From a virus (taxonomy: Duplodnaviria; Caudoviricetes), in IMG/VR virus record IMGVR_UViG_3300025120_000046, positions 1-61,943 of that record: DNA of 61,943 bases, one strand, 5' to 3'. Of the stretch, positions 7,778-61,416 are shown piece after piece (the stretch's first letter is position 1; every line of letters starts with the position of its first letter). Both the position numbers and the translations under genes were made by a program. The notes below the pieces were generated by a model. The model did not search any database, was not told the DNA's origin, and saw only the letters and a list, made by a program, of their open reading frames with translations.

Positions 7778-7790
7778 TTTTAAAAATATA

Positions 7791-7798
7791 TATTTATA
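7791..7798 (+). promoter_or_regulatory. Putative late promoter TATTTATA
   Basis: Recurrent motif at the start of the baseplate cluster. Confidence 0.65.
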
Positions 7799-7808
7799 AC
7801 CAAAAATT

Positions 7809-8144
7809 ATGGGACAATTAGATTCATTAGTTTTTGGTAAAAAATCATTTTCCGATATATTGGAAGAAATTTACCAAAACCAAAAAAAGAGAGACGCTCA
7901 AGTAGTAGCTTTAATATCTGAATTAAAACCATTAGTTCAAGAAATAGGTGATGCTACTCTTATAGTACCACTTATTAAAGAATATATGGAAATTGGAGTT
8001 AAAAATGATGATGCATTAATAAAGATGGCAACTATAGTACAAAGAGTACTTCAAAATGAAGGAGATGGTGATACATTAGGCATTACAGATGAAGAAAAAC
8101 AACAACTTTTAGCTGAAATGGATAAACTTCAATTAGATAAATAA
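7809..8144 (+). CDS. Helical hypothetical protein
   Basis: 111-aa ORF after late promoter. Confidence 0.6.
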   Translation: MGQLDSLVFGKKSFSDILEEIYQNQKKRDAQVVALISELKPLVQEIGDATLIVPLIKEYMEIGVKNDDALIKMATIVQRVLQNEGDGDTLGITDEEKQQLLAEMDKLQLDK

Positions 8145-8152
8145 ATATAAAT

Positions 8153-18800: not shown

Positions 18801-21800
18801 TGAATTAGAGCAATTATATACATCCTCAGGAAGTAATTATTATGTAACAGAAATATCTTCATCACACCCAGCAGTAACAGGATCAGCACCATCTGTAATA
18901 ACGGCTTCATTTATAAACCCAGCAGATTTTTCATTAACATCTAGTTATGATTGGATAGTATATGATAATACAAGTACTAGAACTTATAGTAAACCTAATT
19001 ATGAGGTTTATCAATTAGATCAACCAGCAATAGGAATTAGAAATAGGGTATCAAATAAAATACAGGATGAAAGTGGAGATGCTTATGGGAATGTTTTATC
19101 AACCCAAATAAGTATAGATCAAAACTATTTAATAAGTCAAAGTTACACTGAAGACACAAATAATTTAGAAGTAGGATTTTCACCTCAAGATGAGGTAAAT
19201 GATGATATTATAGCTACATATGGTTATGGAGTAATTTCTGATGCTATTGCAGATCCAAGATTTGTAACATCATCAGATTCATATTATCCAAAATTAAGAG
19301 AAACAGCAGAAGATTATTTCAAAAAATATACTGAAGGTAATGTTTGGGATTATTTAAGATTAATAAAATATTTTGATAATTCATTATTCAAAGCAATTAA
19401 ATCATATGTACCTGCTCGTACTAGTGTAACTACAGGTGTTATAATTAAACAACATATGTTGGAGCGTAATCGTCGCCCAGCTATACAAATAACGCCTAAT
19501 ACTACAATAGCTTTTAGTACTAGTGGTTCATTTGTTACTCAATCTACAGACACAGGAGCTACATATGGATTTGGTTTATATGGAGTAGCTAATTATGGTA
19601 CTGAAGGAGAAATTGCAAGGTGGGGTGCTAATACTTTAAATGTACATAATGTGTTCCAAAATTTAGAATTAAATGCTAATATACCTTTAGGCTCTTACTC
19701 AGGAACTATTCAAACATTTACAGGAGGACATGCATTTAAATCTCCACCAGTAGATTTTACACATTTTACTTCAAGTGGTGCGGTTTCAATTACGGGTTCA
19801 ACATCTTTAATTCCTTTATCAAATTCAGGATCTTTTTTCTATAGTTCTTCAGTAGCTACAGAACCTTCTACTGAATTAGATTTATTTAATTTTATACAAG
19901 CTGGATTCCAAATGACTGGCTCTGCAACTAGAATTACAATGGATCTTAATAATACTTACATTCAATCACCTAATGATGCTGAAGAATACAATCCAGGTTC
20001 TTGTTTTATAGAAACAACAAAACACATAAAATCTAAAGTCCAATGGAATCTTAGCAGAGTAGCAGATGGGAGTGATCCAGCATTAAAATTTCAAATAACT
20101 TCAAGTGAAAGAGGTGTAATATTTAATAGAACATTAACAACAGTGGGTAATGTTTCTACAATTGAGTATACATCTTCATATATGGAATTTTTCCCTGGGG
20201 AGCAATTGTATTTTAATTTTATTGGGGGTGATCAAGGCCAAGTTTATACAAATACATTCCTTAGATTTGGTGATTTAAAGGATGAAAATTCAGGGAGTAT
20301 AGGTAAATTTATAGGAGATTCTGTTTCACAACAAGGATATTTTGAAAAAAATGAAACAATATCAGGTAGTGTATTAGAATGGAATGGAACTCAAGAACAA
20401 CTTTATAATGGAGAATATAGTGGTAGTGTAATAACAGCAACTACCCAATCATTATTAAATAATCCATTTGCACTTGCCCCACCACCAGATACAACTTACC
20501 ACTTAATAATAGATCAAGACAATGGATTAGCAGATCCAATCTCAACTACTGAACTGTTTGGGATGAGGATGTTAATATTTGAATATGACTCAGCTCAATC
20601 AGCAATGGAACAAATTGAAACGGATTTTGCTCCTTATTTAAGTACAGAGTATACAGGAGCAATAGCTATTAAACAAGCAGACTTAACAGGAGTAAATCAT
20701 TTTATATATGCTATGGTAATGCCTATGAGGGTAATTAGAAATCCTTCATCTCCATCAAGTGCAGATTTAGCATTAGTAAATGGAGAATTTAGATCAGATT
20801 TATCAGTGCCCTTTCCAAATATCTCTCCAGATGAAAATATGGCGTATTCAACTTGGACTCAACCAGTTTATGATACTGCTACTAATACATTCGAATATGG
20901 TTTTAACCAAATTAACCCACTTATAAAATGGTCTCAAATGCCTGTTACAACAGGTGGTTGGGAGTTTCTCGATACAGGGTTATTAGGAAATTTAAATTCA
21001 GGTATACTTCACTCAGGGTATTTTGGAAGAACTCGTATTGTGGAAAGATATTTTGGTAGTCCTTCAGGTCTAAAAACTAATCCTCCTGCAGGAACAGAAA
21101 AATTTGTAATGTATAAATTTCCGGGTGCAGAATCTAATAAAGGTAGACCAATAAGATTAGCTGAAGTAGGTACTGGAACAGCACCAGGAAATGCAGGTAC
21201 TCCTACTAGTTTTAGAAATCTTGTTAGTAATGGTACGGGGACTGAAAAAGGAGTTGCATTAACATTTAATTATAGTAAATTTGCTACTAAACAACAAAAC
21301 TTCTTAAATACAATTGCAACTGCATCTTATGGACCAGGAACAGGTAGTTTATTTTTATTGGGAACATCTTTTACATCATCTTATTTCCATGATATTGGAA
21401 ATTGGGTACCATCAGCATTAGTATTTAATAAAAATAGTATAGATTCTCAAGGAAATCTTATTAATAATGAAAGTACATTGTTAAATGAAAATGTTGATTT
21501 TGCATTTAATTTAAATGTTAGTCAAAGTGGTAGACCATTTTTAGATAGTACAAATGTTTTGGGAAGTAGATTTGTACAAAGTTTAAATCAATTAAATGGT
21601 GTAATATCATCTAATGATAATTCAATGATTGGTTATTCATATGTTGCAAATTCAATGGGTGTGAATGGTACTAGAGTATTAAGTGGGTCAGCAGCTGGAT
21701 ATGTTTCAACTGCTGTAAGTTCTATGAATTTAGATGACGATGGTGGTGGATTCTCAGTAGGACAAACTTACACAACAATAAATAATAATACAGGAGTAGA

Positions 21801-23730
21801 TTCAGGTATTGTAATTAGAGTAGATACAGTTGTTGGATCCGGTGGTATTGCTACATTTACTATAATAGATGGAGGTAGTGGAAATACTAATGGAGATGAA
21901 ATTGAAACTAACAAAGGTAGTAATGAGGCTATGTTTTTAGTTACAGGAATAGCAACAGCCCAAAATGGTATATATTCATCTTCATTTGCTAATTCACAAT
22001 TTATATCATTTAATCCTACAGCACCAGATGAAACTAGTTTTTATAATACAGCATTTAATCCATTAATTAATAATGCATCTTCAAGTGTTAAAAACACTTA
22101 CATTATGAAGGTTGAATATGATGATGGTGAAGCAATACCATCAAATATTTTACCTATTATTAGTAGAACAGCTGAGAAAGCTCAAATACCAGATAGTAAT
22201 TATACTACAACTAGAATAATTAACCCTAGATATGTAGGTAGTAGATTACAAAGTGCTGATTACAATAATTATACTCCTGCAACATCAAGTATTACATTTT
22301 TAAATGCATTAAGTGGAAGTGCAGAATCACAATCAGCTTGGAATGGGGATGATAGCTATGCTAATCAAGCAGTAATTAATAAAAACCCAATTTATTTTGC
22401 CCATTTCAAATCATCATTTAATAATTTAAATCTTCCTGGAACTTATACATTTGAAATTGATTCATTAATTTTATCACCTTCATCAAGTGTTCAAGGTGAA
22501 AAAGCACCACAAACACCAGTAGTAATTAAAGTAGATGGTAGTGGAAACGCACTAACTGAAGTTAGAAGTACATTTGAAGTAGATAGAAAAGTAGCAGTAA
22601 CATACGATTCTTTAAAATTTGCTAGTGTAAATTATGCTAAATTAAAAACTGGGGATAATGTTATATTTCAAGGAGCTTTAGAAATGTTAACAGTGGGAGC
22701 TTCAACAACAGGAGAAGAAGGACCTATAGATCAATTTAGATACCCAACATTTACACCAACTATGTCGTTTAATTCATCAAGTTGGGTTGATGGAGGAGGT
22801 TCAGCAACTAATTATACTGAAGTATCTGCATCTTTAAAAGTTTTTGGTATTAATACAAATGATGGGTATTTAGCGACAGGGAGTAAATGTTTATTTTTAA
22901 GAGGATCTGGTGGTTTTATGTCAGCACCATTTAGAAATGATGGAAATGGTGTTCAATATGTAAGTGGTCCTGGATTAGCTATAATAAATAGTATGAATCA
23001 TTGTGTAAGCCAATCTCTTACTGGATCCATAGTTGTTCAAGAATCTGAAAATAGAATTATACCAGGAATTCCTCAGTCATTGTCTCAATCATTTTCAGAA
23101 AACCCAGGTTTAAATGAAAAGGGTATTTATTATTGGAGTCAAAACTTTACAGGTAGTAATTTAGGTGGTTATCGTGCCTCAGAAGGAGCTATACCATTTT
23201 TAATAAAAAAGAATGATGAAATAGAATGTACTTTTGTAAATAATACACAACTAGCAGCAACAGATGGAAAAAATTATGAAACAGTAACATTTATTGTGAC
23301 ATCCATAAGTGGGTCAGTCCCAGGTGATTCCGAAGGTCCACCTACGGCACCTGTAGAAGGAGAATTTTCTGGTTCATATTGCAACTCTACGGTATGTTTT
23401 CAAGCTAAACCTATGGCAACAGCAGCAGGTGTTACTAACATTAGAAATAAAATTAATGTATACCCAGACCCATCAACCTATAATATAGTTGGGGGATTAA
23501 TAGGTTCATTTACAATTAGAAGAAGAGTAAATGCTGATGATAGGGTAATTGTTTATCAAACCGCACCTATAAATACTGGAATAGGTGAAACAACAGGATC
23601 AGGTGGTGGGTTCTTAATACCAAATGACTTTTCACCTCAACAAAAAAGAAATGCTTTAACATTAATTAACCAACTAAAACAGAAAAATGCATTTAGGGAT
23701 GATTCAGAATTACCAGATCCAGTTAAATAA
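15820..23730 (+). CDS. Giant baseplate/tail structural protein (gp7-like wedge initiator with accessory domains)
   Basis: 2636 aa; YLTKKKGTISGLRQLINIWG (gp7/P2 gpI-like KG(T/S) motif), LamG-like segment (FSGSFQEFRYY), GGIATFTIIDGGSG repeat unit. Confidence 0.65.
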   Translation: MKYNESLRKEKSRKEKEIELGYSPIMVTTSSIELSNPVQQLEVSDVTNNNENIIPVSASCTPVNPSTLSSDGFELQDQEIIPSENITGSFTPGKNLVEFFVYDADKNLSSVNYNFTNWTTGKEPGNELLSGSVEEPPTSSITNAISLDPALNAYNLGFDTGQVFTSYNFVNYELGSSIEETFYISEISGDRTEIAIKSNFISSSVALSGYLSLKNQLETATNFDEFYISLFNNDYQIAINIDIISEDTDDPTILIKLYDALPPQFSTKDELYVVTKVGESVAYKINFVEDVQLFIDNANYIKGPNINISLQDLVNNSTTLKSREDLLNTNATSSLNNVLNILNQKGVAITPNYSYNTYSEFVNFSSAKERVNNFYEKVSQIQAYEADITSIQTTVASNPGVSAISQSLASLQTNITNLIENFDGYETYLYYNTSSLYAYPKNTGSGTSYPYDLLSTSSAEVLTWLGSDVENNQYYGGIINSASIYDENNQNWLYYTIPQYIIDNSDNVNYLTFANMVGQSFDEVWIYTKALSERYNTTNDPDSGLPLDLAADAIEGLGFQTFGNNYDNQDNFIGLAGYNDGVYTPPTGSELITKYIAVNSGSIINYWDPEYSFADYVESVTEAAFPYAIDKVSKEIYKRLYHNMAYLTKKKGTISGLRQLINIWGIPNTILRINEFGGKNRDNSNDYDLWYNRFSYAYTPVATQYLASSSILVPWQPLYRNYLTDINEAGDNEFIVPDGVGVRFKTTGFPSSSYAGTFYSQSILAKKSNTTKNSAVDWAISLQYDNQPSGSYSGSSFSDYYEYGNLSFFLSGSESEGGTIQSEKIYLPFFNRGWWTVLLQRDTHASASNNSADVTYTLYAANNQYNGADGNTIGWTGSVSVSLNTPGASQSLNESWNKFSTGVNDGVYIGGYVSGSNVGVVKSGSGGTNGFQAITNGAGKIFSGSFQEFRYYSHAIGEEVFYDFVMNPESVEGNSITGSQSSFDIVNFRAPLGNELEQLYTSSGSNYYVTEISSSHPAVTGSAPSVITASFINPADFSLTSSYDWIVYDNTSTRTYSKPNYEVYQLDQPAIGIRNRVSNKIQDESGDAYGNVLSTQISIDQNYLISQSYTEDTNNLEVGFSPQDEVNDDIIATYGYGVISDAIADPRFVTSSDSYYPKLRETAEDYFKKYTEGNVWDYLRLIKYFDNSLFKAIKSYVPARTSVTTGVIIKQHMLERNRRPAIQITPNTTIAFSTSGSFVTQSTDTGATYGFGLYGVANYGTEGEIARWGANTLNVHNVFQNLELNANIPLGSYSGTIQTFTGGHAFKSPPVDFTHFTSSGAVSITGSTSLIPLSNSGSFFYSSSVATEPSTELDLFNFIQAGFQMTGSATRITMDLNNTYIQSPNDAEEYNPGSCFIETTKHIKSKVQWNLSRVADGSDPALKFQITSSERGVIFNRTLTTVGNVSTIEYTSSYMEFFPGEQLYFNFIGGDQGQVYTNTFLRFGDLKDENSGSIGKFIGDSVSQQGYFEKNETISGSVLEWNGTQEQLYNGEYSGSVITATTQSLLNNPFALAPPPDTTYHLIIDQDNGLADPISTTELFGMRMLIFEYDSAQSAMEQIETDFAPYLSTEYTGAIAIKQADLTGVNHFIYAMVMPMRVIRNPSSPSSADLALVNGEFRSDLSVPFPNISPDENMAYSTWTQPVYDTATNTFEYGFNQINPLIKWSQMPVTTGGWEFLDTGLLGNLNSGILHSGYFGRTRIVERYFGSPSGLKTNPPAGTEKFVMYKFPGAESNKGRPIRLAEVGTGTAPGNAGTPTSFRNLVSNGTGTEKGVALTFNYSKFATKQQNFLNTIATASYGPGTGSLFLLGTSFTSSYFHDIGNWVPSALVFNKNSIDSQGNLINNESTLLNENVDFAFNLNVSQSGRPFLDSTNVLGSRFVQSLNQLNGVISSNDNSMIGYSYVANSMGVNGTRVLSGSAAGYVSTAVSSMNLDDDGGGFSVGQTYTTINNNTGVDSGIVIRVDTVVGSGGIATFTIIDGGSGNTNGDEIETNKGSNEAMFLVTGIATAQNGIYSSSFANSQFISFNPTAPDETSFYNTAFNPLINNASSSVKNTYIMKVEYDDGEAIPSNILPIISRTAEKAQIPDSNYTTTRIINPRYVGSRLQSADYNNYTPATSSITFLNALSGSAESQSAWNGDDSYANQAVINKNPIYFAHFKSSFNNLNLPGTYTFEIDSLILSPSSSVQGEKAPQTPVVIKVDGSGNALTEVRSTFEVDRKVAVTYDSLKFASVNYAKLKTGDNVIFQGALEMLTVGASTTGEEGPIDQFRYPTFTPTMSFNSSSWVDGGGSATNYTEVSASLKVFGINTNDGYLATGSKCLFLRGSGGFMSAPFRNDGNGVQYVSGPGLAIINSMNHCVSQSLTGSIVVQESENRIIPGIPQSLSQSFSENPGLNEKGIYYWSQNFTGSNLGGYRASEGAIPFLIKKNDEIECTFVNNTQLAATDGKNYETVTFIVTSISGSVPGDSEGPPTAPVEGEFSGSYCNSTVCFQAKPMATAAGVTNIRNKINVYPDPSTYNIVGGLIGSFTIRRRVNADDRVIVYQTAPINTGIGETTGSGGGFLIPNDFSPQQKRNALTLINQLKQKNAFRDDSELPDPVK

Positions 23731-28773: not shown

Positions 28774-29574
28774 ATGATATCATTAGTAACATTATTGAAA
28801 GAAGCAACTGAAACCCCAAAAGCAATTATATTAGCTGGGGCACCAGGTGCTGGTAAAGGATATATATTAAAAGGTTTAGATTTAGGTGGTTTAAAAGTAT
28901 TAAATATTGATAATATTTTTGTTAACATGCTTAAAAAAGCAAATGTATCTTTAGATTTAAAAAACGCAACACCAGAAGAAAGAAGCCAACAAGCTAAATC
29001 TATGGCAGCTGCAAATAAAGAATTTAAAGGAGATGTTGCAAGTGTAATTTTAAATAAAGAATCATTTATATTAGATGGTACGGCTGCATCATTAAGAAAT
29101 ACTCTTAAGCTAAAAGATGAATTAAAGGAAGCAGGGTATGAAGTATTTATGCTTTATGTTTATACTGATTTAGAACGTTCATTAAGACAAAATCAAAATA
29201 GATTTGAAAAATCAGGTGGTGAAGATAGAAGTTTAGCACCTGCAATTGTATTACGTACTTGGAAAAATGTAACTGATAATTTACCTGAATATGCTAATGC
29301 ATTTGGTGATAATTTTGTAGCAGTTGCTAATACTTTAGAAGGTCAAAAAATTGGAGATATAGAAAAAATAGTTCAAAAATACCTTAATCCATTCAAACCA
29401 GAAGGTACTAAACCTAAAACACCAGCTCAACAAAAAAAATCTGACGAACAAAAAGCAGAATTAAATGCTGAAATTCAAGATATGTTAAGTGATGAATTTT
29501 TATATGATGTAATTGAATACACTATGTCTAAAGAAGAAGCACAAATGAGATTAAAACAATTTTTAAATGGGTAA
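28774..29574 (+). CDS. Zeta-toxin-like / AAA_33 P-loop kinase, late-expressed
   Basis: ILAGAPGAGKG Walker A, FILDGT, SLRQNQNR; TATTTATA at 28750-28757; leader MISLVTLLKE. Confidence 0.75.
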   Translation: MISLVTLLKEATETPKAIILAGAPGAGKGYILKGLDLGGLKVLNIDNIFVNMLKKANVSLDLKNATPEERSQQAKSMAAANKEFKGDVASVILNKESFILDGTAASLRNTLKLKDELKEAGYEVFMLYVYTDLERSLRQNQNRFEKSGGEDRSLAPAIVLRTWKNVTDNLPEYANAFGDNFVAVANTLEGQKIGDIEKIVQKYLNPFKPEGTKPKTPAQQKKSDEQKAELNAEIQDMLSDEFLYDVIEYTMSKEEAQMRLKQFLNG

Positions 29575-32402: not shown

Positions 32403-32431
32403 ATCTTTATATATTTATAAATAAAATTAAC

Positions 32432-34380: not shown

Positions 34381-34459
34381 CAATAATCACGTAAAAATAC
34401 GCGATTAGGAACTATTTCGATATATTTATAAATAAACCCAACTAAAATAAAAATTTAAA

Positions 34460-39672: not shown

Positions 39673-39710
39673 AAACCATTATATTTATAAATAAAGAAAA
39701 AAATTAAATT

Positions 39711-40570: not shown

Positions 40571-41884
40571 ATGAATAATAAAATAGTAATGATAGGTGCA
40601 GGAGTAGCAAATGTAAATGCTGCTACTAAATTAATTGATGAAGGTTTCCAAGGTAAAATCACTATTATTGATATGGGTAAAGATCCGTATAGAAGACCAT
40701 ATGAAGAAGTAATGACTGGTTTTTTAGGGGCTGGTGGGTGGTCTGATGGTAAATTAACTTATCATACATCAATTGGGGGTCAATTAAGTAAATATTGTGG
40801 TGAAGAAAAAGCAATGGAGTTATTTGATCAAGTAATTGATAATTTTAAACGTTTTCACCCTAACCCATCAGAAGTGCAATGTTCGAACCCTATAGCGGAA
40901 CCAGAATTTATTAAACCATATTTTGGATTACGTTTATTTCCAGTATGGCACGTTGGTACTGATTATTTACATGAAATAGGTAAAAATTGGTATAATTTTT
41001 TAGCTGATAATGGTGTTGAATTTATATGGGAAACAAAAGTTACTTCAATTGATTTTGATAATAATGAATTATTTATAGGAGAAGAAGAATCTTTTTTAAA
41101 TCCAAAAAATTGGCCTATTTCATATGATACACTTATCTTTGGTGTAGGTAAATCAGGAATTGACTTTGGTAAACAATTAGCAGAACAATATGATTTGCCA
41201 ACTGAACCAAAACCAGTACAAATAGGTGTTAGATTTGAAGCACCACAAAAACACTTTCAAAAATTAATTGATGTAAGTTATGATTTCAAATTATATAGAA
41301 AATATGAAGACAAAGGAGTATCATTACGTTCTTTCTGTACAAACAACAATGCAGCATATGTTGCCGTTGAAGAAACGTATGGAGACCATAGCTACAATGG
41401 ACACGCTAAAAAAGATGAAGCATTCCGAAATGATATGACCAATTTTGGTATATTAATGGAAGTTCAAGGCATTGATAAACCATTTGATTGGTCTAGAGAA
41501 TTAGTAGGAAAAGTACAAAAAGAAAGTACTGGATTATTTTATAGTCCTACAAGAAAACCTACTACTACATCTGAAGGTATAGGTGTTAGTGCAGTTCAAA
41601 TTGATTCATTAGATGAAGTAAGAGAAGCATTTCAAGGATATTACACATACATTGATGATTTTATTGATGATATGAAGAAAGTATTTCCTACATTAGGAGA
41701 TGATTGGGGTGTGTATGTACCTGAAATTAAATATCTATCACCTGAACCTCTAGTTAATTATAATGATTTAAGTTTAACAAAATATCCTAATGTTCACTTT
41801 GTTGGTGATGCATTAAGTGCAAGAGGAATTACAGTATCTGGGGCACAAGGAACATTAGTAGCAGAACAAATAATAAAAAAATAA
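40571..41884 (+). CDS. FAD-dependent oxidoreductase (COG2509-like)
   Basis: IGAGVA, GFLGAGGWSDGKL, IGVRFE, RSFCTN, NGHA, FVGDALSARGITVSGAQG. Confidence 0.85.
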   Translation: MNNKIVMIGAGVANVNAATKLIDEGFQGKITIIDMGKDPYRRPYEEVMTGFLGAGGWSDGKLTYHTSIGGQLSKYCGEEKAMELFDQVIDNFKRFHPNPSEVQCSNPIAEPEFIKPYFGLRLFPVWHVGTDYLHEIGKNWYNFLADNGVEFIWETKVTSIDFDNNELFIGEEESFLNPKNWPISYDTLIFGVGKSGIDFGKQLAEQYDLPTEPKPVQIGVRFEAPQKHFQKLIDVSYDFKLYRKYEDKGVSLRSFCTNNNAAYVAVEETYGDHSYNGHAKKDEAFRNDMTNFGILMEVQGIDKPFDWSRELVGKVQKESTGLFYSPTRKPTTTSEGIGVSAVQIDSLDEVREAFQGYYTYIDDFIDDMKKVFPTLGDDWGVYVPEIKYLSPEPLVNYNDLSLTKYPNVHFVGDALSARGITVSGAQGTLVAEQIIKK

Positions 41885-41888
41885 AATT

Positions 41889-42164
41889 ATGGGTAAAAAA
41901 TCAAAACTATATGAAGAAAAAGTAATTAAGTATAAAGGTGCAAGACATTATTTAATTAGAATGGAAGGTGAAGAGCATTTTAAACACCATAGATGGGACA
42001 ATCCAGCAATAGTACCCCTATCAAGAAAAAGTGAATTTAAAAAAGGATATTTTTTAAGTGGGATTGAATACCCAGAAGAAGTATATAACGAAATAATGAA
42101 AGAAAGAGAAGGTTTACCTTGGTATAAGCAATCAGCACCTAAAGGAGAAACATATAGAAACTAG
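41889..42164 (+). CDS. Hypothetical protein
   Basis: HRWDNPAI...YFLSGIEY; operonic. Confidence 0.6.
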   Translation: MGKKSKLYEEKVIKYKGARHYLIRMEGEEHFKHHRWDNPAIVPLSRKSEFKKGYFLSGIEYPEEVYNEIMKEREGLPWYKQSAPKGETYRN

Positions 42165-42166
42165 TT

Positions 42167-42580
42167 ATGAGAGAGTCAACAATACAAGCTTTACCTTATA
42201 AAGGTGAGATTCATAAAAAAGCTTGGGGTCATGAGTTATGGATTATCAATAATGAAAAATATTGTGGTAAATTATTAGTATTTAAAGCTAATAAACAATT
42301 TTCAATGCATTATCATATGTTAAAAGATGAAGCATGGTATATTAATAAAGGAGAATTTGAATATAAATATATTGACACAGAAACTTCAGAATTAAGGTCT
42401 AAAATAGTTAGAGAAGGAGATTGTATTCATTTAATTCCAGGACAACCTCACCAAATGTTGGCTTTGCAAGAAGGAAGTTGTATATTCGAGGTATCAACAC
42501 AACACTTTGATAGTGATAGTTATAGGATTTTACCTGGGGCATCACAAGATGAAAATAATAATGAAGATTTACCATTTTAA
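42167..42580 (+). CDS. Cupin (sugar-phosphate isomerase-like)
   Basis: KAWGHE, YCGKLL, SMHYHMLKDEAWY, PGQPH, EVSTQHFDSDSYR. Confidence 0.8.
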   Translation: MRESTIQALPYKGEIHKKAWGHELWIINNEKYCGKLLVFKANKQFSMHYHMLKDEAWYINKGEFEYKYIDTETSELRSKIVREGDCIHLIPGQPHQMLALQEGSCIFEVSTQHFDSDSYRILPGASQDENNNEDLPF

Positions 42581-42582
42581 AT

Positions 42583-43272
42583 ATGGAAAGAAACGGAAAA
42601 CAGTTTTATACAGTTGGGGGAAAATTAATTGATATTTCAAATTGGAATATTAGTGGAAGTATTGCTGACTTTGAAAAAAATTATGGCTGGGAAGGTGCAA
42701 TGGCTTATGGAAATTTAGTTCATGATGAATTAAACCAACATGGTCCAGGAATCCAACCAGGAGATGTATATTTAGACTTGGGGGCAAATATAGGTATGTC
42801 GGCTTTAAGAGCTGAATTGTGTGGTGCCTCTAAATTATATTGCATTGAACCAGATCCGGGTGTATATAAAGCTTTAGAAATAAATAAATCAGATAAATGG
42901 GAAACATTTAATTTAGCAATTGCTGATTATGATGGAGAAATAAATATACCTAGATGGCCTAATTGGAGAGATAATGTTTTACGTTCTTGTATTACTTTAG
43001 AAAATTTTATTTATTCTAATAAAATCCCACACATTGATTATATGAAAGTAGATATTGAAGGACATGAAATTCAAATTATGCCTCAAATTACTAAAGCAAT
43101 ATACAGTAAAATTTCTAAAATATTTGTAGAATATCATGAGGACACTACAATTTCTAATGAAGAAAGAGATACAAATAGATTAAAATTTATTAAATCAATC
43201 AAATCAAAAGGTTATAATAATTTTCATGTTCATCTTGGATGGGCTCAAAGTTGGTTGTATTTTTGGAAATAA
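42583..43272 (+). CDS. FkbM-family SAM-dependent methyltransferase
   Basis: YLDLGANIG, IEPDP, MKVDIEGHE, VEYH. Confidence 0.85.
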   Translation: MERNGKQFYTVGGKLIDISNWNISGSIADFEKNYGWEGAMAYGNLVHDELNQHGPGIQPGDVYLDLGANIGMSALRAELCGASKLYCIEPDPGVYKALEINKSDKWETFNLAIADYDGEINIPRWPNWRDNVLRSCITLENFIYSNKIPHIDYMKVDIEGHEIQIMPQITKAIYSKISKIFVEYHEDTTISNEERDTNRLKFIKSIKSKGYNNFHVHLGWAQSWLYFWK

Positions 43273-43282
43273 ATAATAAGTT

Positions 43283-43813
43283 ATGAAAATAGGTTTTTGT
43301 GGAACAATGTCAGTAGGTAAAACAACTTTAGTTAATGCTTTAGCTGAATTATCTGAATTTAAAGATTATAAGTCAACAACAGAACGATCTAAATATTTAA
43401 TGGGGTTAGGTATTCCTTTAAATACTGATTCTACAGTTAAAGGTCAAGCTGTATTTTTAGCTGAAAGAGCTAGTGAATTAATGAATGATAATATTATTAC
43501 TGATAGAACTATTATTGATGTAATGGCGTTTGCTAAATGTTCTAAATCAATGAATTATATAGAAGCAAATGATTTTTGTCATTTTGCAAGTAATATGTTA
43601 AATGAGTATGATTATATATTTTATGTATCTCCTGAAGGTGTTGACATAGAAAATAATGGAGTTAGAGAAACTAATGCAGATTATAGAAAACAAATTGATG
43701 AGGCAATTCAACTATTAATTATTAAATATAGGCATAAAATTAAAAATTTAGTTGAAATTAAAGGATCAACAAAAGAGCGTATAAAATCAGTTAAACTATC
43801 AGTCCTTTCGTGA
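43283..43813 (+). CDS. AAA_28/NadR-like nucleotide kinase
   Basis: GTMSVGKTT, ITDRTIID, ENNGVR. Confidence 0.8.
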   Translation: MKIGFCGTMSVGKTTLVNALAELSEFKDYKSTTERSKYLMGLGIPLNTDSTVKGQAVFLAERASELMNDNIITDRTIIDVMAFAKCSKSMNYIEANDFCHFASNMLNEYDYIFYVSPEGVDIENNGVRETNADYRKQIDEAIQLLIIKYRHKIKNLVEIKGSTKERIKSVKLSVLS

Positions 43814-46461: not shown

Positions 46462-46490
46462 TAAATATTATATTTATAAATAAATAAAAC

Positions 46491-52632: not shown

Positions 52633-53910
52633 ATGAACAGAAACTTTTTAAAAGAAGCAATCGCTGATGCTAAAGCAGTCAAAGAATCTGCAATAGCAAA
52701 TGCTAAAGTCGCTCTAGAAGAAGCTTTTTCCCCACAAGTTCAAGCCATGTTCGCTAGTAAAATAGAAGAAATGGAAAAAGAAGATGTGAAGGAAGAAATG
52801 GACGATAAAGTAGACGAAGCTAAAAAAGATGATGATAAAATGGAGGAAGGAAAAGAATACATGACCAAAAAGGAAAAGCGCGAAGGTGACGATCGTAAGT
52901 CTGATAACAAGGCTGAGACTGAAACTGAAAAAATGCGTAAAATCAAAGAGGAAGATGTATCTGATCTAGACGAAATTTTAGCAGAATTAGAAAAAGATGA
53001 AGATCTAAAGGAAAACAAAGACAAAGAAATCGACGAAGCAAAAAAGGACGACGACAAGGAAGACATCAAAGAAGATGAAAGAACTGACGCTGAAGAAGAA
53101 GGCTACGAAGATGGAATGGAAGACGAAAAAGAAGATGAGGACGATGAAGATATCGACCTTGATGACTTATCGGAAGAAGACCTTAAGAAATTTATCGAAG
53201 ATGTAATCGAAGATATGGTTAACGCTGGTGAAATTGAAGCTGGTGAATCATTCGAAGATGATGTAGATGTTAATGTTGACGTAGACGGAGAAATTGAAGT
53301 AGAAGATGATGAAGAAACTTCTGTGGATGTAGCCGAAGCTAAAGAAGACATTGATGAAGCAAAAGATAAAGTTGACGAAAAGAAAAAACAAGGATACGAT
53401 GCAAGATTGGATGATGCTGAAGGTGCTAGACATGGTAAAAAGAAACAAGATATGGCTCAAAGAAGAGCTGATTCTGAAAACATGGAAAAAGCTGACGGTA
53501 AAAGAAAATTTGCAGGAGACAAAGAAATGGACAAAGTTAAAGAAGAATTAGCTGAAGCATACGCTACAGTTAAAACTTTAAAAACTGAGTTAAATGAAAT
53601 CAACTTATTGAATGCTAAATTACTCTACACGAATAAAGTGTTCCGTGGCAAAAACTTAACTGAATCACAAAAAGTTAAAGTATTAGGAGCTTTTGATAAA
53701 GCTGAATCTGTGAAAGAAGTAAAACTTGTGTTTGAAACTATCGATGGTAGTGTTAAAACAAAAGTATCTAATAAATCTATAAGCGAAGGCTTTAGATCTA
53801 AAGGAAGTGCTTCTAACATGACAGTAAATAAGAAAGAGACTAAAAAACAACCTATTGTTGAATCAGATGAGATGGTCGCTCGCTTTAAGAAATTAGCTGG
53901 AATAATCTAA
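52633..53910 (+). CDS. Prohead core scaffold protein (gp22-like)
   Basis: Very acidic coiled coil between protease and capsid genes; LNEINLLNAKLLY; C-terminal RFKKLAGII. Confidence 0.8.
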   Translation: MNRNFLKEAIADAKAVKESAIANAKVALEEAFSPQVQAMFASKIEEMEKEDVKEEMDDKVDEAKKDDDKMEEGKEYMTKKEKREGDDRKSDNKAETETEKMRKIKEEDVSDLDEILAELEKDEDLKENKDKEIDEAKKDDDKEDIKEDERTDAEEEGYEDGMEDEKEDEDDEDIDLDDLSEEDLKKFIEDVIEDMVNAGEIEAGESFEDDVDVNVDVDGEIEVEDDEETSVDVAEAKEDIDEAKDKVDEKKKQGYDARLDDAEGARHGKKKQDMAQRRADSENMEKADGKRKFAGDKEMDKVKEELAEAYATVKTLKTELNEINLLNAKLLYTNKVFRGKNLTESQKVKVLGAFDKAESVKEVKLVFETIDGSVKTKVSNKSISEGFRSKGSASNMTVNKKETKKQPIVESDEMVARFKKLAGII

Positions 53911-53953: not shown

Positions 53954-55669
53954 ATGTCACAATTAAATTCTCTATTAGAAAGTGCTAATCCTTACAAGTC
54001 GCTACAAAGTGATGCGGCTAGATTAGCAAACAAATGGAATAAGACAGGTTTATTAGAAGGTATCGGTAACGAAACTGAGAAAAATAATATGTCTATTATT
54101 CTTGAAAACCAAGCTAAGCAGTTGGTAATGGAAGAAAGTAATACTGGTGGTGGTGCAGGTTCAGGAACATTTACTCCTGGAACTGGTGCTCAATGGGCTG
54201 GTGTAGCTTTACCATTAGTAAGAAAAGTATTTGGTCAAATCGCAGCAAAAGAATTTGTTTCGGTTCAACCAATGAACTTACCTTCTGGCCTAGTATTTTA
54301 TCTTGATTTCCAGTATGGTACTACAAAAGATCCATTCACAAGAGGAAATTCATTATTTGGTGATACAGTAGCAACTCAAACAGGTCCTATTAATGACGTA
54401 ACTTCTCCATTTGGTAACACAAATGCAGGTGGTCTTTATGGTGCTGGTAGATTTGGTTACTCTATTAACAACACACAATCATTAGCTTATAAGCCAGTTT
54501 CGGCTTCAGTTGATTGGTATGTAGATTTACAAGCTGATTCTTCAGTTTCTCAATCTTATCTTGCAGGTAATGTAACTAACGCTGCTGGAACAGGTATTAC
54601 AGGTGCTAAGCAAATTGGTGCGTTCAACGTACCAGTAGCTTCTTTACCTAACTACGATACTAGAGCCGTAAAAGGATTCTATTTATCAGGTTCTGCTGCT
54701 ACTATTCCTGCTACTACAGTTCAATACCCACAATTTACAAAAGTAACGCAATCAGCTGGTGTTGATGTAATTGCTTTCTTCGTAGATTCTGATATTGATG
54801 CTTCTGCTGCAGGTGCAAACGTTAAAGTTGTTTATACTCTTCAAACTTCTGACAATGAAAGAGGTGATTTCGAAGATGGTAACACTAACTTAAACGGAAA
54901 TAACGACCCAATCACTATCCCTCAGATTAACATTCAAATGCAATCAGAGGCTATAGTTGCTAAAACTAGAAAATTAAGAGCAGTTTGGACTCCTGAGTTC
55001 GCTCAAGATCTTAACGCTTACCATTCTCTAGATGCAGAAGCTGAATTAACTTCAATCATGAGTGAGTACATTTCATTAGAAATTGACTTAGAAATTCTTG
55101 ATATGTTGATCGAATCAGCTGCAGCTGGTACAGAATGGTGGAGTGCTCAGAACAACTTAGCAGTTGGTTCTACAGGTGTTGTAAATGCTGACTTAGGGTT
55201 CTTTAACTCTCAAGGACAATGGTTCCAAACTTTAGGAACTAAAATCCAAAAGTTAAGTAATATCATTCACCAGAAAACTCTTAGAGGTGGTGCTAATTTC
55301 TTAGTATGTTCTCCAACAGTAGCTACAATTATCGAATCTATACCAGGATTTGCTAGTACTTCTGATGGTGATGCTGCTAAAGCTTCTTACGCTTTTGGTG
55401 TACAGAAAGCTGGTACTATCAACTCTAGATATACTGTTTATAAGAACCCTTACATGACTGAAAACACAATCCTATTAGGATTTAGAGGAGGTCAGTTCTT
55501 AGAAGCTGGTGCTGTATTTGCTCCATATATTCCGTTAATTATGACTCCATTAGTATACGATCCAAATACCTTTACTCCAAGAAAAGGTCTATTAACTCGT
55601 TACGCTAAGAAAGTCGTAAGACCAGAATTCTATGGTAAAATCTTTGTTAATGGTTTAAATACTCTTTAA
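53954..55669 (+). CDS. gp23: Major capsid protein (T4 gp23-like)
   Basis: VSVQPMNLPSGLVFYL, AKTRKLRAVWTPEFAQDL, LDAEAEL, EIDLEI, FAPYIPL, FTPRKGLLTRY. Confidence 0.95.
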   Translation: MSQLNSLLESANPYKSLQSDAARLANKWNKTGLLEGIGNETEKNNMSIILENQAKQLVMEESNTGGGAGSGTFTPGTGAQWAGVALPLVRKVFGQIAAKEFVSVQPMNLPSGLVFYLDFQYGTTKDPFTRGNSLFGDTVATQTGPINDVTSPFGNTNAGGLYGAGRFGYSINNTQSLAYKPVSASVDWYVDLQADSSVSQSYLAGNVTNAAGTGITGAKQIGAFNVPVASLPNYDTRAVKGFYLSGSAATIPATTVQYPQFTKVTQSAGVDVIAFFVDSDIDASAAGANVKVVYTLQTSDNERGDFEDGNTNLNGNNDPITIPQINIQMQSEAIVAKTRKLRAVWTPEFAQDLNAYHSLDAEAELTSIMSEYISLEIDLEILDMLIESAAAGTEWWSAQNNLAVGSTGVVNADLGFFNSQGQWFQTLGTKIQKLSNIIHQKTLRGGANFLVCSPTVATIIESIPGFASTSDGDAAKASYAFGVQKAGTINSRYTVYKNPYMTENTILLGFRGGQFLEAGAVFAPYIPLIMTPLVYDPNTFTPRKGLLTRYAKKVVRPEFYGKIFVNGLNTL

Positions 55670-55697
55670 TCAATAGATTTTAAATAATAGTAATTAA

Positions 55698-55725
55698 GAG
55701 CCCCGCATTAGCGGGGCTTTTTTTT
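55698..55725 (+). terminator. Rho-independent terminator after the capsid gene
   Basis: AGCCCCGC-ATTA-GCGGGGCT followed by a T-run. Confidence 0.9.
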
Positions 55726-55729
55726 ATTA

Positions 55730-55763
55730 TTTGGTTACCTAGTAGGTACTTAGTATATTTATA
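55730..55763 (+). promoter_or_regulatory. Composite host-type + late promoter
   Basis: TTTG-N20-TATATTTA overlapping TATTTATA at 55756-55763. Confidence 0.55.
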
Positions 55764-55785
55764 CTCAAACAAAACAGTTATTAAA

Positions 55786-56700
55786 ATGAAAGAAACTCCC
55801 TCGCAGTTACCAATTCAAAGTTACGTAATGAATTTCCCACATACATTTTCAACAGATGATCCAAATAATGTTTGGATGAAGGAAATGTCCGATAAAGAAT
55901 TAGCAATAAATAGACCAAAGGCATATAAGCAGTTTATGGACTTGTATAACTTTATGGCTGGACAATCATTAGTACATTTATTACCTGCAGAAGGTAATTT
56001 CCAAGATTTAATTTATGTAGCAAATTTAGGATTACAATTACCACATATTTGTGATGAAAATCATATTTTATTATCAAATTATACTTCACCCCCAAGACAA
56101 GGAGAAGAATATGTAGGTGAAAAATTCTTTAAACAAATGGGTTATAATACTCACATATCACCTCATAAATGGGAAGGTGAAGCAGATATAAAATATTTAA
56201 AAGATAATGTTTATATAGGGGGATATGATATTCGTTCAGATATAAAAACATACCATTGGATGGAAGAAAACTTTAATATGAAAGTTATTAAAGTTAAAAT
56301 GGTTGATGAGTATATGTACCATTTAGATTGTAGTATATTCCCGTTAAATACGCGGTCAACTATGGTTTGTACTGAGTTATATGATAAAACCGAGTTAGCG
56401 CAAATTAGCAAATATACTAACATAATAGACATAGATGCAGAAGACTCAATGTATGGAATGGCTAATTCTGTTAGATTAGGTAATATGATTTTATGTGCTT
56501 CAAATATTTCTGAAATGAAAAAAGGAGATGAATTTTATGAAGGTGAAAAACATAAAATTGCTTCATTAGAAAAAATATGTTCTGATGAAGGGATGGAACC
56601 TGTAATTTTTAATCTATCAGAATATATGAAATCTGGAGCTATGTTAAGTTGTATGGTAATGCATTTAAACAGAGTTGATCATTTTAAATCACTTCTTTAA
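55786..56700 (+). CDS. Amidinotransferase/pentein superfamily enzyme (ArgZ-type arginine dihydrolase / DDAH-like)
   Basis: NNVWM, DLIYVANLG, WEGEAD, YHLDCS, EYMKSGAMLSC (catalytic Cys). Confidence 0.8.
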   Translation: MKETPSQLPIQSYVMNFPHTFSTDDPNNVWMKEMSDKELAINRPKAYKQFMDLYNFMAGQSLVHLLPAEGNFQDLIYVANLGLQLPHICDENHILLSNYTSPPRQGEEYVGEKFFKQMGYNTHISPHKWEGEADIKYLKDNVYIGGYDIRSDIKTYHWMEENFNMKVIKVKMVDEYMYHLDCSIFPLNTRSTMVCTELYDKTELAQISKYTNIIDIDAEDSMYGMANSVRLGNMILCASNISEMKKGDEFYEGEKHKIASLEKICSDEGMEPVIFNLSEYMKSGAMLSCMVMHLNRVDHFKSLL

Positions 56701-57434
56701 TGGCTGAGACTTTAAAAGATTGGTTAAATGGTGAAGTAAATAAATTATCTAAATTATCAGTAGGAGAATTAAGCAACACATTCTTTTTTAGAGATCCCTT
56801 AAGATCAACCCACATAGATTATAAACATTTTTATAGTCCAGCAGATGGAACTATTTTATATCAAAAATTAGTTCAACCTGGTGAACAAGTTTTAGAAATA
56901 AAAGGTATTGATTATACTATCCAAGATGTAATGGGTGATAGCGATTATAATAAACCTTCTTTAGTTATTGGAATATTTATGTCATTTTATGATGTACATA
57001 TTAATAGAATTCCTTATGGTGGTGTACTTAAGTATAAACGTTTGGAACCTATTGAATCTACAAACAAACCAATGTTAGCGGTAGAGAAGGATATTTTAAA
57101 TAAAGTAATCAATCCGAATAACATGGCGTACTTAAAGTACAATGAAAGGATGTCTAACCAAGTGTATGTTCCTTCTTTAGATTACACATATCATATAATA
57201 CAAATAGCAGATGAAGATGTAAATGTAATAGCCCCTTTTAAACAACAGGGGGATCTTTGTACACAAAACGAAAGATTCAGTTTGATTAGATGGGGGTCAC
57301 AAGTAGATTTAGTTCTACCTCTAGATTCTAGATATAAATTTGAGACCATTCTAGATGATACAATGCATGTAAATGCAGGTCTTGATAAATTAATCAAAAT
57401 TAAAGAAACGAATAATGACATCGAACCATCATAA
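56700..57434 (+). CDS. psd: Phosphatidylserine decarboxylase-family pyruvoyl proenzyme
   Basis: FFFRDP, YSPADG, FMSFYDVHINRIP, RWGSQVDL autocleavage site. Confidence 0.8.
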   Translation: MAETLKDWLNGEVNKLSKLSVGELSNTFFFRDPLRSTHIDYKHFYSPADGTILYQKLVQPGEQVLEIKGIDYTIQDVMGDSDYNKPSLVIGIFMSFYDVHINRIPYGGVLKYKRLEPIESTNKPMLAVEKDILNKVINPNNMAYLKYNERMSNQVYVPSLDYTYHIIQIADEDVNVIAPFKQQGDLCTQNERFSLIRWGSQVDLVLPLDSRYKFETILDDTMHVNAGLDKLIKIKETNNDIEPS

Positions 57435-58149
57435 GGACGAAGTATTCAGAAAAAAAAGAATAGTAAAAAACCCAATTAAATTTAAATTACAATTAAACGA
57501 AGAACAAAAAGAAGCAAAGGCAAAAATACTAGATCACACATTATCAGTATTAGCTGGTAGAGCAGGTTCAGGAAAAACATTATTAGCTTGTAATATAGCA
57601 TTAGATGGATTGTTAAGAAGACATTACACAAAAATTGTAATTACACGTCCTACAGTATCAAAAGAAGAAATAGGATTTTTACCTGGTGATTTAAGAGAAA
57701 AAATGGATCCTTGGATTCAACCAATTTATCAAAATATGTATTCTTTGTTTGATAAAGTTAAAGTTGAAAAATTAATTGAAGATGGAAAAATAGAAATAGT
57801 ACCTTTAGCATTTATGCGAGGTAGAACATTTTTAGATTCATGTATTATAGTAGATGAAGCACAAAATGTTACTCATGAACAAATGGAAATGATTTCAACT
57901 CGTATAGGTTTAAGATCAAAAATGATAGTTTGTGGTGATGATCATCAAATTGATTTAAGAGGTAAAGCAGATTCTGGTTTTAGATTTTTATATGCTGCTG
58001 CTAGAAGAATTAAAAAAATGACTAGTATAACTTTAATGCAAAATCATAGAGATCCTATTGTTGATAATTTAATTGAAATCTATGAGGAAGCAGAAGAAAA
58101 AGGTATGTTTAAGGGTACCTCAGGAAGTAGCGGAAAAACCCGGAAATAA
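57415..58149 (+). CDS. phoH: PhoH family ATPase
   Basis: GRAGSGKT, ITRP, IGFLPGDLREK, LAFMRGRTF, VDEAQN, GDDHQID, HRDPIV. Confidence 0.95.
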   Translation: MTSNHHKDEVFRKKRIVKNPIKFKLQLNEEQKEAKAKILDHTLSVLAGRAGSGKTLLACNIALDGLLRRHYTKIVITRPTVSKEEIGFLPGDLREKMDPWIQPIYQNMYSLFDKVKVEKLIEDGKIEIVPLAFMRGRTFLDSCIIVDEAQNVTHEQMEMISTRIGLRSKMIVCGDDHQIDLRGKADSGFRFLYAAARRIKKMTSITLMQNHRDPIVDNLIEIYEEAEEKGMFKGTSGSSGKTRK

Positions 58150-61379: not shown

Positions 61380-61416
61380 TAATATTGAATTTCATAATAT
61401 TTATAAATAAAATTAG

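Follow-up and report, generated by a model that had tools for sequence, protein, structure and literature searches.

Introduction

The cyanobacterial arginine dihydrolases ArgZ (Sll1336) and AgrE (Alr4995), which are penteins, and the pyruvoyl enzymes of the phosphatidylserine decarboxylase (PSD) family are the closest described relatives of two overlapping genes, open reading frame (ORF) 1 and ORF2, that lie behind the major capsid gene in the virus contig IMGVR_UViG_3300025120_000046. The stretch that was analysed, referred to here as the window, is the whole of this 61.9-kb metagenomic virus contig (61,943 nucleotides); it has genes for a gp20 portal, a gp21-type prohead protease, the gp23 capsid, the large terminase, gp25 and PhoH, and its source is a marine T4-like myophage. 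We propose, with a probability of roughly 45%, that the pair forms a soluble module of two enzymes whose substrate is arginine, or a close guanidino amino acid, and whose product is a diamine.

In E. coli PSD, D90, D142, H144 and S254 have been assigned roles in self-cleavage, Tyr137 binds the phosphate, a position occupied by Tyr in 85% of PSDs and by Arg in 15%, and three N-terminal amphipathic helices provide monotopic membrane binding (PMC7952604). The same fold is used on free amino acids by PsiD, which acts on L-tryptophan and for which H296 is described as essential for cleavage (PMC11929908), and by Ao-ADC1, described as an arginine decarboxylase acting on free L-arginine (PMC12904898). 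Among the penteins, the substrate-binding residues of dimethylarginine dimethylaminohydrolase (DDAH) are given as Asp73, Asp78, Arg98 and Arg145 (PMC9980740). Viruses are also known to encode polyamine enzymes, including phage pyruvoyl arginine and ornithine decarboxylases derived from SpeD and, in PBCV-1, a pathway of arginine decarboxylase, agmatine iminohydrolase and N-carbamoylputrescine amidohydrolase (PMC9992855). The main text of that paper has zero occurrences of "phosphatidylserine decarboxylase", "dihydrolase", "Campylobacter" or "Bacteroides phage", and among open-access full texts and bioRxiv, searched as texts without supplements, we found no paper that treats both phage genes together or assigns a tested function.

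ORF1 is an ArgZ/AgrE-like pentein

ORF1 belongs to phrog_12759 (4e-58). It has no match in Pfam at E ≤ 0.1, PF19420 (DDAH) included, and some of its close relatives bear a precomputed PF19420 label. The NCBIfam models for arginine dihydrolase, dimethylargininase and bifunctional ArgZ gave E-values of 1.6e-24, 1.4e-23 and 2.3e-23, respectively, and ORF1 fails the DDAH cut-off (NF045659, 83.5 bits vs 300). AgrE and ArgZ were the only sequence matches in the PDB, at 3e-15 with the single protein and 9e-24 with a profile. An AlphaFold model built from 32 homologues, with a predicted local distance difference test score (pLDDT) of 89.2, matched AgrE and ArgZ with a Foldseek E-value of 2e-18 and a template-modelling (TM) score of 0.77-0.79, DDAH at 1e-10, and amidinotransferases, AstB and agmatine deiminase at 1e-10 or weaker. 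In all, 119 PDB chains matched at E ≤ 0.001, and the model places ORF1 in the pentein superfamily with the predicted five-bladed β/α propeller fold.

The HMMER alignment pairs D74, N80, R104, E130, D134, R150, H179, D181 and C289 of ORF1 with D65, N71, R90, E118, D122, R139, H168, D170 and C264 of AgrE/ArgZ, and each mapped catalytic residue is retained in 58-61 of the 61 homologues from phages and bacteria (R104 in 61/61, D74 and R150 in 60/61 each, Asn at N80 in 59/61). The active-site set of the penteins, a Cys nucleophile, a His and acidic residues, is present as C289, H179, E130 and D181. N71, an Asn that sets ArgZ apart, is reportedly required for the second hydrolysis. The PDB titles of ArgZ and AgrE entries record that C264 was mutated to trap the substrate, and that N71S (6JUZ) traps a covalent intermediate.

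D74, N80, R104 and R150 of ORF1 also have the spacing of the four DDAH binding residues, a correspondence that is one of spacing only. In the DDAH structures the two arginines that correspond by spacing to R104 and R150 hold the α-carboxylate of the substrate. Since the Arg and Asp positions match the spacing of the DDAH binders, the conserved residues suggest that the substrate of ORF1 still bears an amino-acid head group.

The similarity to ArgZ and AgrE covers their N-terminal domain only, and ORF1 has no C-terminal ornithine cyclodeaminase domain. Longer forms of ORF1 (533-2000 residues) comprised one intein-bearing pentein and zero pentein-decarboxylase fusions, an empty result that is weak evidence. 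In public metagenomes ORF1 has 1263 protein clusters (90% identity, E ≤ 0.001) and is abundant in marine samples.

ORF2 is a PSD-family protein that has lost the lipid-binding features

ORF2 belongs to phrog_12670 (7e-42) and matches the Pfam PSD family PF02666 at 7e-24, with 85 bits vs a cut-off of 22, over profile positions 6-193 of 198. It lies below the cut-offs of all 15 NCBIfam PSD models, the best being NF003685 (78.4 bits vs 183). Among 1.84 billion representative proteins, 905 relatives were found at E ≤ 0.001 and 98 at E ≤ 1e-30, mostly of ~240 residues, and the family has 1243 clusters in public metagenomes (90% identity, E ≤ 0.001), again abundant in marine samples. Two relatives are longer: P0245 (390 residues) continues into an Acb1 anti-CBASS domain and P0246 (1114 residues) into VapB-like and ADP-ribosyltransferase exoenzyme domains; these may be real fusions or read-through in gene calling.

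A single-sequence search of the PDB with ORF2 returned nothing at E ≤ 0.1, and PSD and PsiD were reached by profile only. The model built from 79 relatives (pLDDT 95.2) matched E. coli PSD with a Foldseek E-value of 4e-7 and, in VIA, a Z-score of 12.4 at a root-mean-square deviation (rmsd) of 4.5 Å over 178 aligned residues. It also matched tryptophan decarboxylase PsiD (Z 10.6, rmsd 4.6 Å, 179 aligned) and arginine decarboxylase Ao-ADC1 (Z 10.0, rmsd 4.7 Å, 178 aligned). EIIA-type barrel proteins gave comparable scores (Z 11.2 and 10.5) because their core is common to both. ORF2 resembles the soluble amino-acid decarboxylases of the PSD fold in these fold matches, and PsiD also in the catalytic His and in the Phe at the Tyr137 position; the similarity in sequence is marginal (profile E 0.0098 to PsiD).

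The profile alignment with E. coli PSD pairs D49 with D90, D98 with D142, H100 with H144 and F93 with Y137, and sets R103 in place of H147. The sequence alignment stops at residue 155, and S200 was matched to S254 via the Gly-Ser motif and a fold match ending at residue 252. The 79 family members retain D49 in 69 cases, D98 in 63, H100 in 78, and G199 and S200 in 77 each. As the equivalents of all these residues are present, the self-processing set is intact, and the predicted scissile bond is G199-S200. H296 of PsiD aligns with H100, and F289 of PsiD with F93. At the position of the phosphate-binding Tyr137, 74 of the 79 family members have Phe, as PsiD does, and five have Tyr.

The membrane helices of PSD have no counterpart in ORF2, the fold match starting at residue 40 of the 6L06 chain and the sequence alignment at E. 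coli residue 63. No hydrophobic segment was found either; the highest Kyte-Doolittle mean over 19 residues is 0.95 and the mean of the first 40 residues is −0.4. The polar residues N122, E129, N148, R150, D171 and Q189 are conserved specifically in the ORF2 family, and of these E129 and D171 might hold a cationic side chain. An initial annotation of the window, made from its letters, had called ORF1 closest to the ArgZ/AgrE dihydrolase domain and had noted in ORF2 the autocleavage motifs SPADG (residues 46-50), DVH (98-100) and GS (199-200) and the lack of a membrane anchor. The PDB matches, the fold and the Asn equivalent to N71 agree with the first of these points, the motifs are conserved across the family, and the hydrophilic N-terminus bears out the last.

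The two genes are linked in diverse phages

ORF2 lies directly 3' of ORF1 in 78 of the 80 IMG/VR loci most like ORF1 (the best 80 were kept per scan, of 235-238 viral relatives), and the other two loci end within ~70 bases of ORF1. The PhoH gene follows ORF2 in 72/80 of these loci, the remaining eight ending before PhoH, and the order capsid-ORF1-ORF2-PhoH persists even with capsid proteins of just 53-57% identity. A second scan, with a homologue from a gut phage as the basis of ranking, found a PSD-like gene in 75/78 loci, many of them from contigs of the first scan; two of its three exceptions are contigs that stop just past ORF1, and the third (L113) has an HNH-like endonuclease ORF that runs to the contig end.

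Among 50,697 deposited phage records, 47 have relatives of ORF1 (40 Campylobacter, of which one is a 35% match only, 6 Bacteroides and 1 Ralstonia) and 45 have relatives of ORF2 (39 Campylobacter, 6 Bacteroides); no Flavobacterium phage record matched either gene. Bacteroides phage SJC03 has the pair side by side (genes 241 and 242), each gene bearing the annotation "hypothetical". The Campylobacter matches to both genes are Fletchervirus records, and the annotations in Campylobacter phage NCTC12673 are "aminidotransferase" (gp044) and "phosphatidylserine decarboxylase" (gp085). Three marine metatranscriptome libraries, from two studies, contain short contigs that are almost identical to both genes, which we read as presence in RNA libraries only. 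The depth of these RNA contigs is much higher over the capsid gene and PhoH; it was not used, as contig depth cannot rank genes.

Mobile elements are found in and around the pair. The intein-bearing database proteins P0242 and P0391 represent a PSD-like allele with a LAGLIDADG intein and a pentein allele with a probable intein (weak Pfam match, E 4e-4). GIY-YIG-like ORFs lie in gaps between ORF1 and ORF2 at L085:6905-7450 and L092:1900-2700, the HNH-like ORF of the second scan lies at L113:6880-7937, and Campylobacter phages have a homing endonuclease overlapping the PSD-like gene at its end. With near-universal linkage, inteins within both genes and homing endonucleases between them, the pair behaves like core genes of a widespread marine myophage lineage. 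A 15.6-kb contig (L162) binned in a Flavobacteriales metagenome-assembled genome (MAG) carries the pair at 91% identity and is probably phage DNA, and the complete 164-kb relative G001 encodes, at L222:11085-12065, a protein with a CHU_C type IX secretion sorting domain; both hint at a host in Bacteroidota.

Joint folding of ORF1 with ORF2 gave a median score of 0.43 (runs of 0.55, 0.43 and 0.04) vs 0.00 for the best control, with partner pLDDT of at least 84 and at least 97% of contacts agreeing between runs. Of the solved complexes 58/80 reached the mark, and of the mismatched pairs 2/110; at scores of ≤ 0.60 it was reached by only 7/80 and by both mismatches, counts that are rough with our own alignments; a pass of this kind is more often wrong than right unless a complex is likely beforehand. 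The predicted joint model lends weak support to a physical complex of ORF1 and ORF2.

Bacterial relatives of the pentein often lie beside decarboxylase genes

Across 185,579 species genomes, 57 loci from bacteria or MAGs carried a pentein that is 31-91% identical to ORF1 and nearer to it than ArgZ is. A few short contigs from MAGs, 64-91% identical (L162, L175, L190 and L208), are probably binned phage DNA. In 20 of the 57 loci a PSD-like gene is found in the same locus, mostly directly upstream of the pentein, in Streptomyces, Saccharothrix, Actinosynnema, Streptoalloteichus, Thermoleophilaceae, an Eiseniibacteriota MAG and others; it is downstream, as in the phages, in L162, L175 and the Saprospiraceae locus L193. 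In the Streptomyces sp. locus L167 the best PSD-like match is ~1 kb off on the opposite strand, and a second copy lies directly upstream of the pentein. These two divergent PSD-like paralogues and the pentein (~6100-8900, with flanks) sit amid DegT-type aminotransferases, glycosyltransferases, an epimerase, a GNAT protein and a carbamoyltransferase, and the cluster looks like one of the aminoglycoside or nucleoside-antibiotic type. Exporters (MatE, ABC, EamA, MFS) are common beside the bacterial pentein loci.

Other loci have a different decarboxylase as neighbour. A pyridoxal phosphate (PLP)-dependent decarboxylase of the ornithine/arginine/diaminopimelate type (PF02784/PF00278) is found in 11 of the 57, chiefly in cyanobacteria and Myxococcota; two of these matches are weak, >3 kb away and probably unrelated, and one locus (L201) also has an Orn/Lys/Arg-type match ~4 kb off. 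An Orn/Lys/Arg-type decarboxylase (PF01276) is present alone in three Spirulina-like loci, and 23 loci, mostly lower-identity alphaproteobacterial loci or truncated contigs, have neither a PSD-like gene nor one of these PLP decarboxylases. Several sister-clade loci also carry a gene of the agmatine-deiminase family, and agmatine may therefore be an intermediate in those clusters.

A quick maximum-likelihood tree of the penteins, midpoint-rooted and with Shimodaira-Hasegawa-like approximate likelihood ratio support only, places all bacterial sequences with a PSD partner, together with 11 of the 12 from phages, in one half (support 97). The other half has PLP-decarboxylase neighbours or no decarboxylase neighbour; the Campylobacter pentein falls in it on a long branch, and its placement is unsure. 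The pentein of the ORF1 kind habitually pairs with an amino-acid decarboxylase, a role that is filled by three unrelated decarboxylase folds.

Proposed pathway and alternatives

The partner of the sister-clade pentein is a PLP-dependent decarboxylase of the basic-amino-acid type, and this is the strongest argument that ORF2 acts on a basic amino acid and not on a phospholipid. The most likely chemistry would be arginine to ornithine to putrescine. In the first step, Cys289 of ORF1 would attack the guanidino carbon with the assistance of His179, Glu130, Asp181 and Asn80, and complete hydrolysis of arginine would yield ornithine, two NH3 and CO2. In the second, ORF2 would cleave itself between Gly199 and Ser200 by means of Asp49/Asp98 and His100, converting Ser200 into a pyruvoyl group; this would form a Schiff base with the α-amino group of ornithine, and removal of the carboxyl group would give putrescine. 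We prefer to place the pentein first because ORF1 keeps residues that, by their spacing, bind an amino-acid head group, and because the pentein gene comes first in the phages. The likely purpose is to supply polyamines to the infected cell or to the packaged DNA, with arginine nitrogen released as a by-product, and condensation of DNA by polyamines is plausible. We tentatively suggest that arginine is turned into putrescine without PLP by two enzymes, an arginine dihydrolase acting first and a PSD-fold ornithine decarboxylase second, a route not recognised before. The initial annotation had put forward a pathway of two coupled steps in which the PSD fold is turned to a use other than on lipids, and all comparative tests that we ran support it, including the linkage of the pair in diverse phages and bacteria, which clearly contradicts the lack of linkage elsewhere that the annotation had named as counting against it; the substrates and the order of the steps are our inference.

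Several observations weigh against the arginine-to-diamine assignment. ORF1 is far below the NCBIfam equivalog cut-offs (86.6 vs 450 for NF052232, 82.2 vs 1025 for NF052231), as is ORF2 with its best PSD model, and the role of R104 and R150 as carboxylate binders is presumed from their spacing and from DDAH structures. The PLP decarboxylases of the sister clade match lysA best, at ~1e-40 and below the cut-off. The agmatine-deiminase-like genes, often present in the sister clusters, fit an agmatine route or a more complex product, and the surroundings of the bacterial pairs, with exporters and nonribosomal peptide synthetase (NRPS) or sugar-modifying genes, suggest a secondary metabolite that is exported and not housekeeping putrescine. 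Spermidine synthase (PF01564) was found in none of the five pair-carrying phage genomes, and a scan of 105 of the 172 ORFs called in G001 showed no polyamine family (the remaining 67 are mostly structural, and polyamine families other than spermidine synthase were not searched genome-wide); no downstream use of putrescine is therefore encoded by the phages as far as these scans reach. Finally, the pair is not adjacent in Fletchervirus, its members being ~42 kb apart in NCTC12673.

The main rival is the reverse order, in which ORF2 would be a pyruvoyl arginine decarboxylase producing agmatine, and ORF1 would hydrolyse agmatine to N-carbamoylputrescine or directly to putrescine, the latter making it an "agmatine dihydrolase". 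Ao-ADC1 provides the precedent of a PSD-fold arginine decarboxylase (PMC12904898) that the ORF2 model matches, the bacterial pairs usually have the PSD-like gene first, and the agmatine-deiminase-family genes of the sister clusters point the same way. However, the phages place the pentein first, and agmatine is without the carboxylate that the conserved R104, R150 and D74 of ORF1, the head-group binders by spacing, would recognise; we consider this order unlikely.

ORF1 could instead be an amidinotransferase that moves the amidino group of arginine onto an amine made by ORF2. The resulting guanidino-amine would serve in bacteria as an exported or peptide-linked building block of a natural product, and in phages as a polycation or effector. 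Such a product would suit the bacterial loci, with their exporters, NRPS, condensation-domain protein and sugar-antibiotic-like genes; the fold is common with SxtG, HsvA and AGAT (E 1e-10 to 6e-9), and the Campylobacter homologue is so annotated in phage records, although this annotation is a label of similarity only. ORF1 is, however, far nearer to the hydrolases ArgZ and AgrE in both sequence and fold, and it keeps the Asn equivalent to N71, so that transfer of the amidino group appears quite improbable.

That the two are unrelated auxiliary genes, ORF2 being a true phosphatidylserine decarboxylase that remodels host lipids and ORF1 an independent DDAH or arginine-catabolic enzyme, is very improbable. 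ORF2 does exceed the Pfam PSD threshold, its relatives are labelled phosphatidylserine decarboxylase, a survey of marine viral metabolic genes counts viral psd under lipid metabolism (PMC11360552), and the genes are far apart in Fletchervirus. It is nevertheless without the membrane-binding helices and has Phe for the phosphate-binding Tyr, the linkage is near-exceptionless across phages with divergent capsids and recurs in Actinomycetota, and PLP amino-acid decarboxylases substitute as the partner in sister loci.

The chance that the pair modifies phage DNA or nucleotides, for instance in a 7-deazaguanine pathway or in the synthesis of deoxyinosine DNA, is equally slim: G001 has GTP cyclohydrolase I (FolE), a QueD-like protein and a radical-SAM enzyme, and deoxyinosine replaces deoxyguanosine in Fletchervirus DNA (PMC13091555), but the pair occurs in Campylobacter and Bacteroides phages only among the deposited records, the proposed decarboxylase of 7-carboxy-7-deazaguanine, DpdL, is a paralogue of QueD and not a relative of PSD (PMC10516641), a pyruvoyl enzyme needs a primary amine beside the carboxyl group, as described for PsiD (PMC11929908), and the bacterial homologues adjoin exporters and not DNA-modification genes. 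Flavobacterium phage immuto, Cellulophaga phage phiST and Campylobacter phage CP220 are reported to be fully modified with 7-deazaguanine (PMC10516641); no Flavobacterium or Cellulophaga record matched the pair, and CP220 is not among the matches listed. We rejected the link to 7-deazaguanine or deoxyinosine on the grounds that no record of a Flavobacterium or Cellulophaga phage matched the pair, that DpdL is a QueD paralogue and that pyruvoyl chemistry needs an α-amino acid. Synthesis of an amino-lipid or a modified base, both of which the initial annotation had offered as alternatives, gained no support.

In G001 itself, a region at L220:536-5402 encodes GTP cyclohydrolase I, a PTPS/QueD-like protein, a radical-SAM enzyme, a phosphoribosyltransferase and a DUF1599 "nucleotide modification associated" protein. 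This gene content suggests that the DNA of G001 may be 7-deazaguanine-modified, as in the related Flavobacterium phage immuto; the QueC family was not seen among the 105 scanned ORFs. Neither ORF1 nor ORF2 matched any defence or counter-defence family of PADLOC at E ≤ 0.01.

Gene layout and flanking sequences

The positions of the features are collected in Table 1. ORF1, ORF2 and the PhoH gene are co-oriented and overlapping, and they lie behind the hairpin. As the initial annotation had pointed out, the first two overlap as TAATG, and the ORF1 stop codon TAA (56698-56700) and the ORF2 start codon ATG (56700-56702) indeed share a single A; the start of the PhoH gene overlaps the end of ORF2 by 20 bases. 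The composite promoter that it had assigned to the pair was not confirmed, since a single sigma-70-like match was found there and promoter-like sites in the region numbered 12 vs 18.9 expected from shuffled sequence, without enrichment. Terminator-like hairpins in the region numbered two vs 0.9 expected.

Table 1. Positions in the window of ORF1, ORF2 and the features around them.
Feature	Position	Strand	Remarks
Major capsid gene	53954..55669	+	upstream of the ORF1/ORF2 module
Strong terminator-like hairpin	55696..55721	+	11-pair stem, 7 GC pairs, 4-base loop, then T-run TTTTATTATT; 3' of capsid gene
Weak sigma-70-like match before ORF1	55758..55787	+	9-of-12; candidate promoter only
ORF1	55786..56700	+	304 aa; ArgZ/AgrE-like pentein, probable guanidino-group hydrolase
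ORF2	56700..57434	+	244 aa; soluble PSD-family pyruvoyl proenzyme; predicted cleavage G199-S200
PhoH-like ATPase gene	57415..58149	+	PF02562, 6.6e-62; conserved neighbour downstream of ORF2
TATTTATAAATA sites	32412-32423, 34423-34434, 39682-39693, 46471-46482, 61398-61409	both	5' of gene starts

The motif TATAAATA occurs 35 times in the window vs 22.2 expected, a count reached by 0/100 shuffles. At five intergenic sites just 5' of gene starts it occurs on both strands with a 4-base offset and forms the palindrome-like TATTTATAAATA, a candidate late-promoter motif of this phage lineage. Before ORF1 the half motif TATTTATA, one half of TATTTATAAATA, stands alone on the + strand (55756-55763).

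Elsewhere in the window, the gene in the scaffold position (52633-53910) encodes a scaffold-like protein of 425 residues that is extremely acidic, of low complexity and rich in D, E and K, and its opposite strand has long, spurious serine-rich ORFs. The baseplate and tail region has an ORF of 2636 residues (15820-23730) that matches no Pfam family at E ≤ 1e-5 and whose counterpart in G001 has 2721 residues. A few non-structural genes stand amid structural ones at 40571-43813, encoding a protein like a pyridine-nucleotide-disulphide oxidoreductase, a cupin, an FkbM-type methyltransferase and a protein like an AAA_28 kinase, and a zeta-toxin/AAA_33-like kinase is encoded at 28774-29574.

Significance

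The pair is common: clustered at 90% identity, the proteins of each gene make up over 1,200 clusters in public metagenomes. Current annotations call one gene "phosphatidylserine decarboxylase" and the other "DDAH" or "amidinotransferase", and surveys of viral metabolic genes consequently file the pair under lipid or creatine metabolism. If putrescine is indeed made from arginine by these two proteins, this would be a new pathway with a new decarboxylase fold in polyamine biosynthesis; it would add a fold for the decarboxylation of ornithine, be the third time that the PSD fold was independently recruited to act on a free amino acid, and correct a systematic mis-annotation. The phages would bypass the regulated three-step agmatine route of the host, provide diamine at a late stage of infection and set free two ammonia for each arginine, by a route common to abundant marine T4-like, Bacteroides and Campylobacter phages and to Actinomycetota, possibly in a physical complex. 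It would also provide a testable handle on the management of polyamines and nitrogen by large Bacteroidota and Campylobacter phages, and the clusters with the same pentein in Actinomycetota and cyanobacteria would point to an uncharacterised exported metabolite.

Comparison with known systems

ORF1 has the pentein fold in common with ArgZ and AgrE, with a TM-score of 0.86 when normalised to the N-terminal domain of ArgZ, at ~21% identity, and every aligned active-site residue is retained, among them the equivalents of C264, H168, E118 and N71. The cyanobacterial enzymes are proteins of ~700 residues with an ornithine cyclodeaminase domain, whereas ORF1 has 304 residues and is without it. ORF1 also belongs to a clade apart from ArgZ, whose bacterial members are 31-48% identical to it and lie beside decarboxylases.

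The fold and the self-processing set are common to ORF2 and E. coli PSD (6L06, 7CNW), D90, D142, H144 and S254 being represented by D49, D98, H100 and S200. However, the three N-terminal helices are absent from ORF2, Tyr137 is replaced by Phe and His147 by Arg, and the cleavage motif reads WGSQ in ORF2 and LGST in E. coli PSD. ORF2 thus fails three defining features of a lipid PSD, namely the N-terminal helices, Tyr137 and the NCBIfam cut-offs. PsiD and Ao-ADC1 are soluble enzymes of the PSD fold that act on free amino acids, but these fungal enzymes have ~440-480 residues with extra N-terminal regions, compared with 244 in ORF2, and the texts that describe them report no pentein partner (PMC11929908, PMC12904898).

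The viral polyamine systems named above have the same likely purpose, to make putrescine or agmatine from arginine or ornithine, and likewise use pyruvoyl chemistry and, in PBCV-1, a pentein, which is an agmatine deiminase (PMC9992855). They differ in the fold of the decarboxylase, which is PSD in ORF2 and S-adenosylmethionine decarboxylase/SpeD or alanine racemase in those systems, and in the type of pentein, which is ArgZ-like in ORF1. Taken together, the superfamilies, an analogue for each step and polyamine synthesis by viruses are known; new are the conserved two-enzyme module and, probably, its route from arginine to a diamine.

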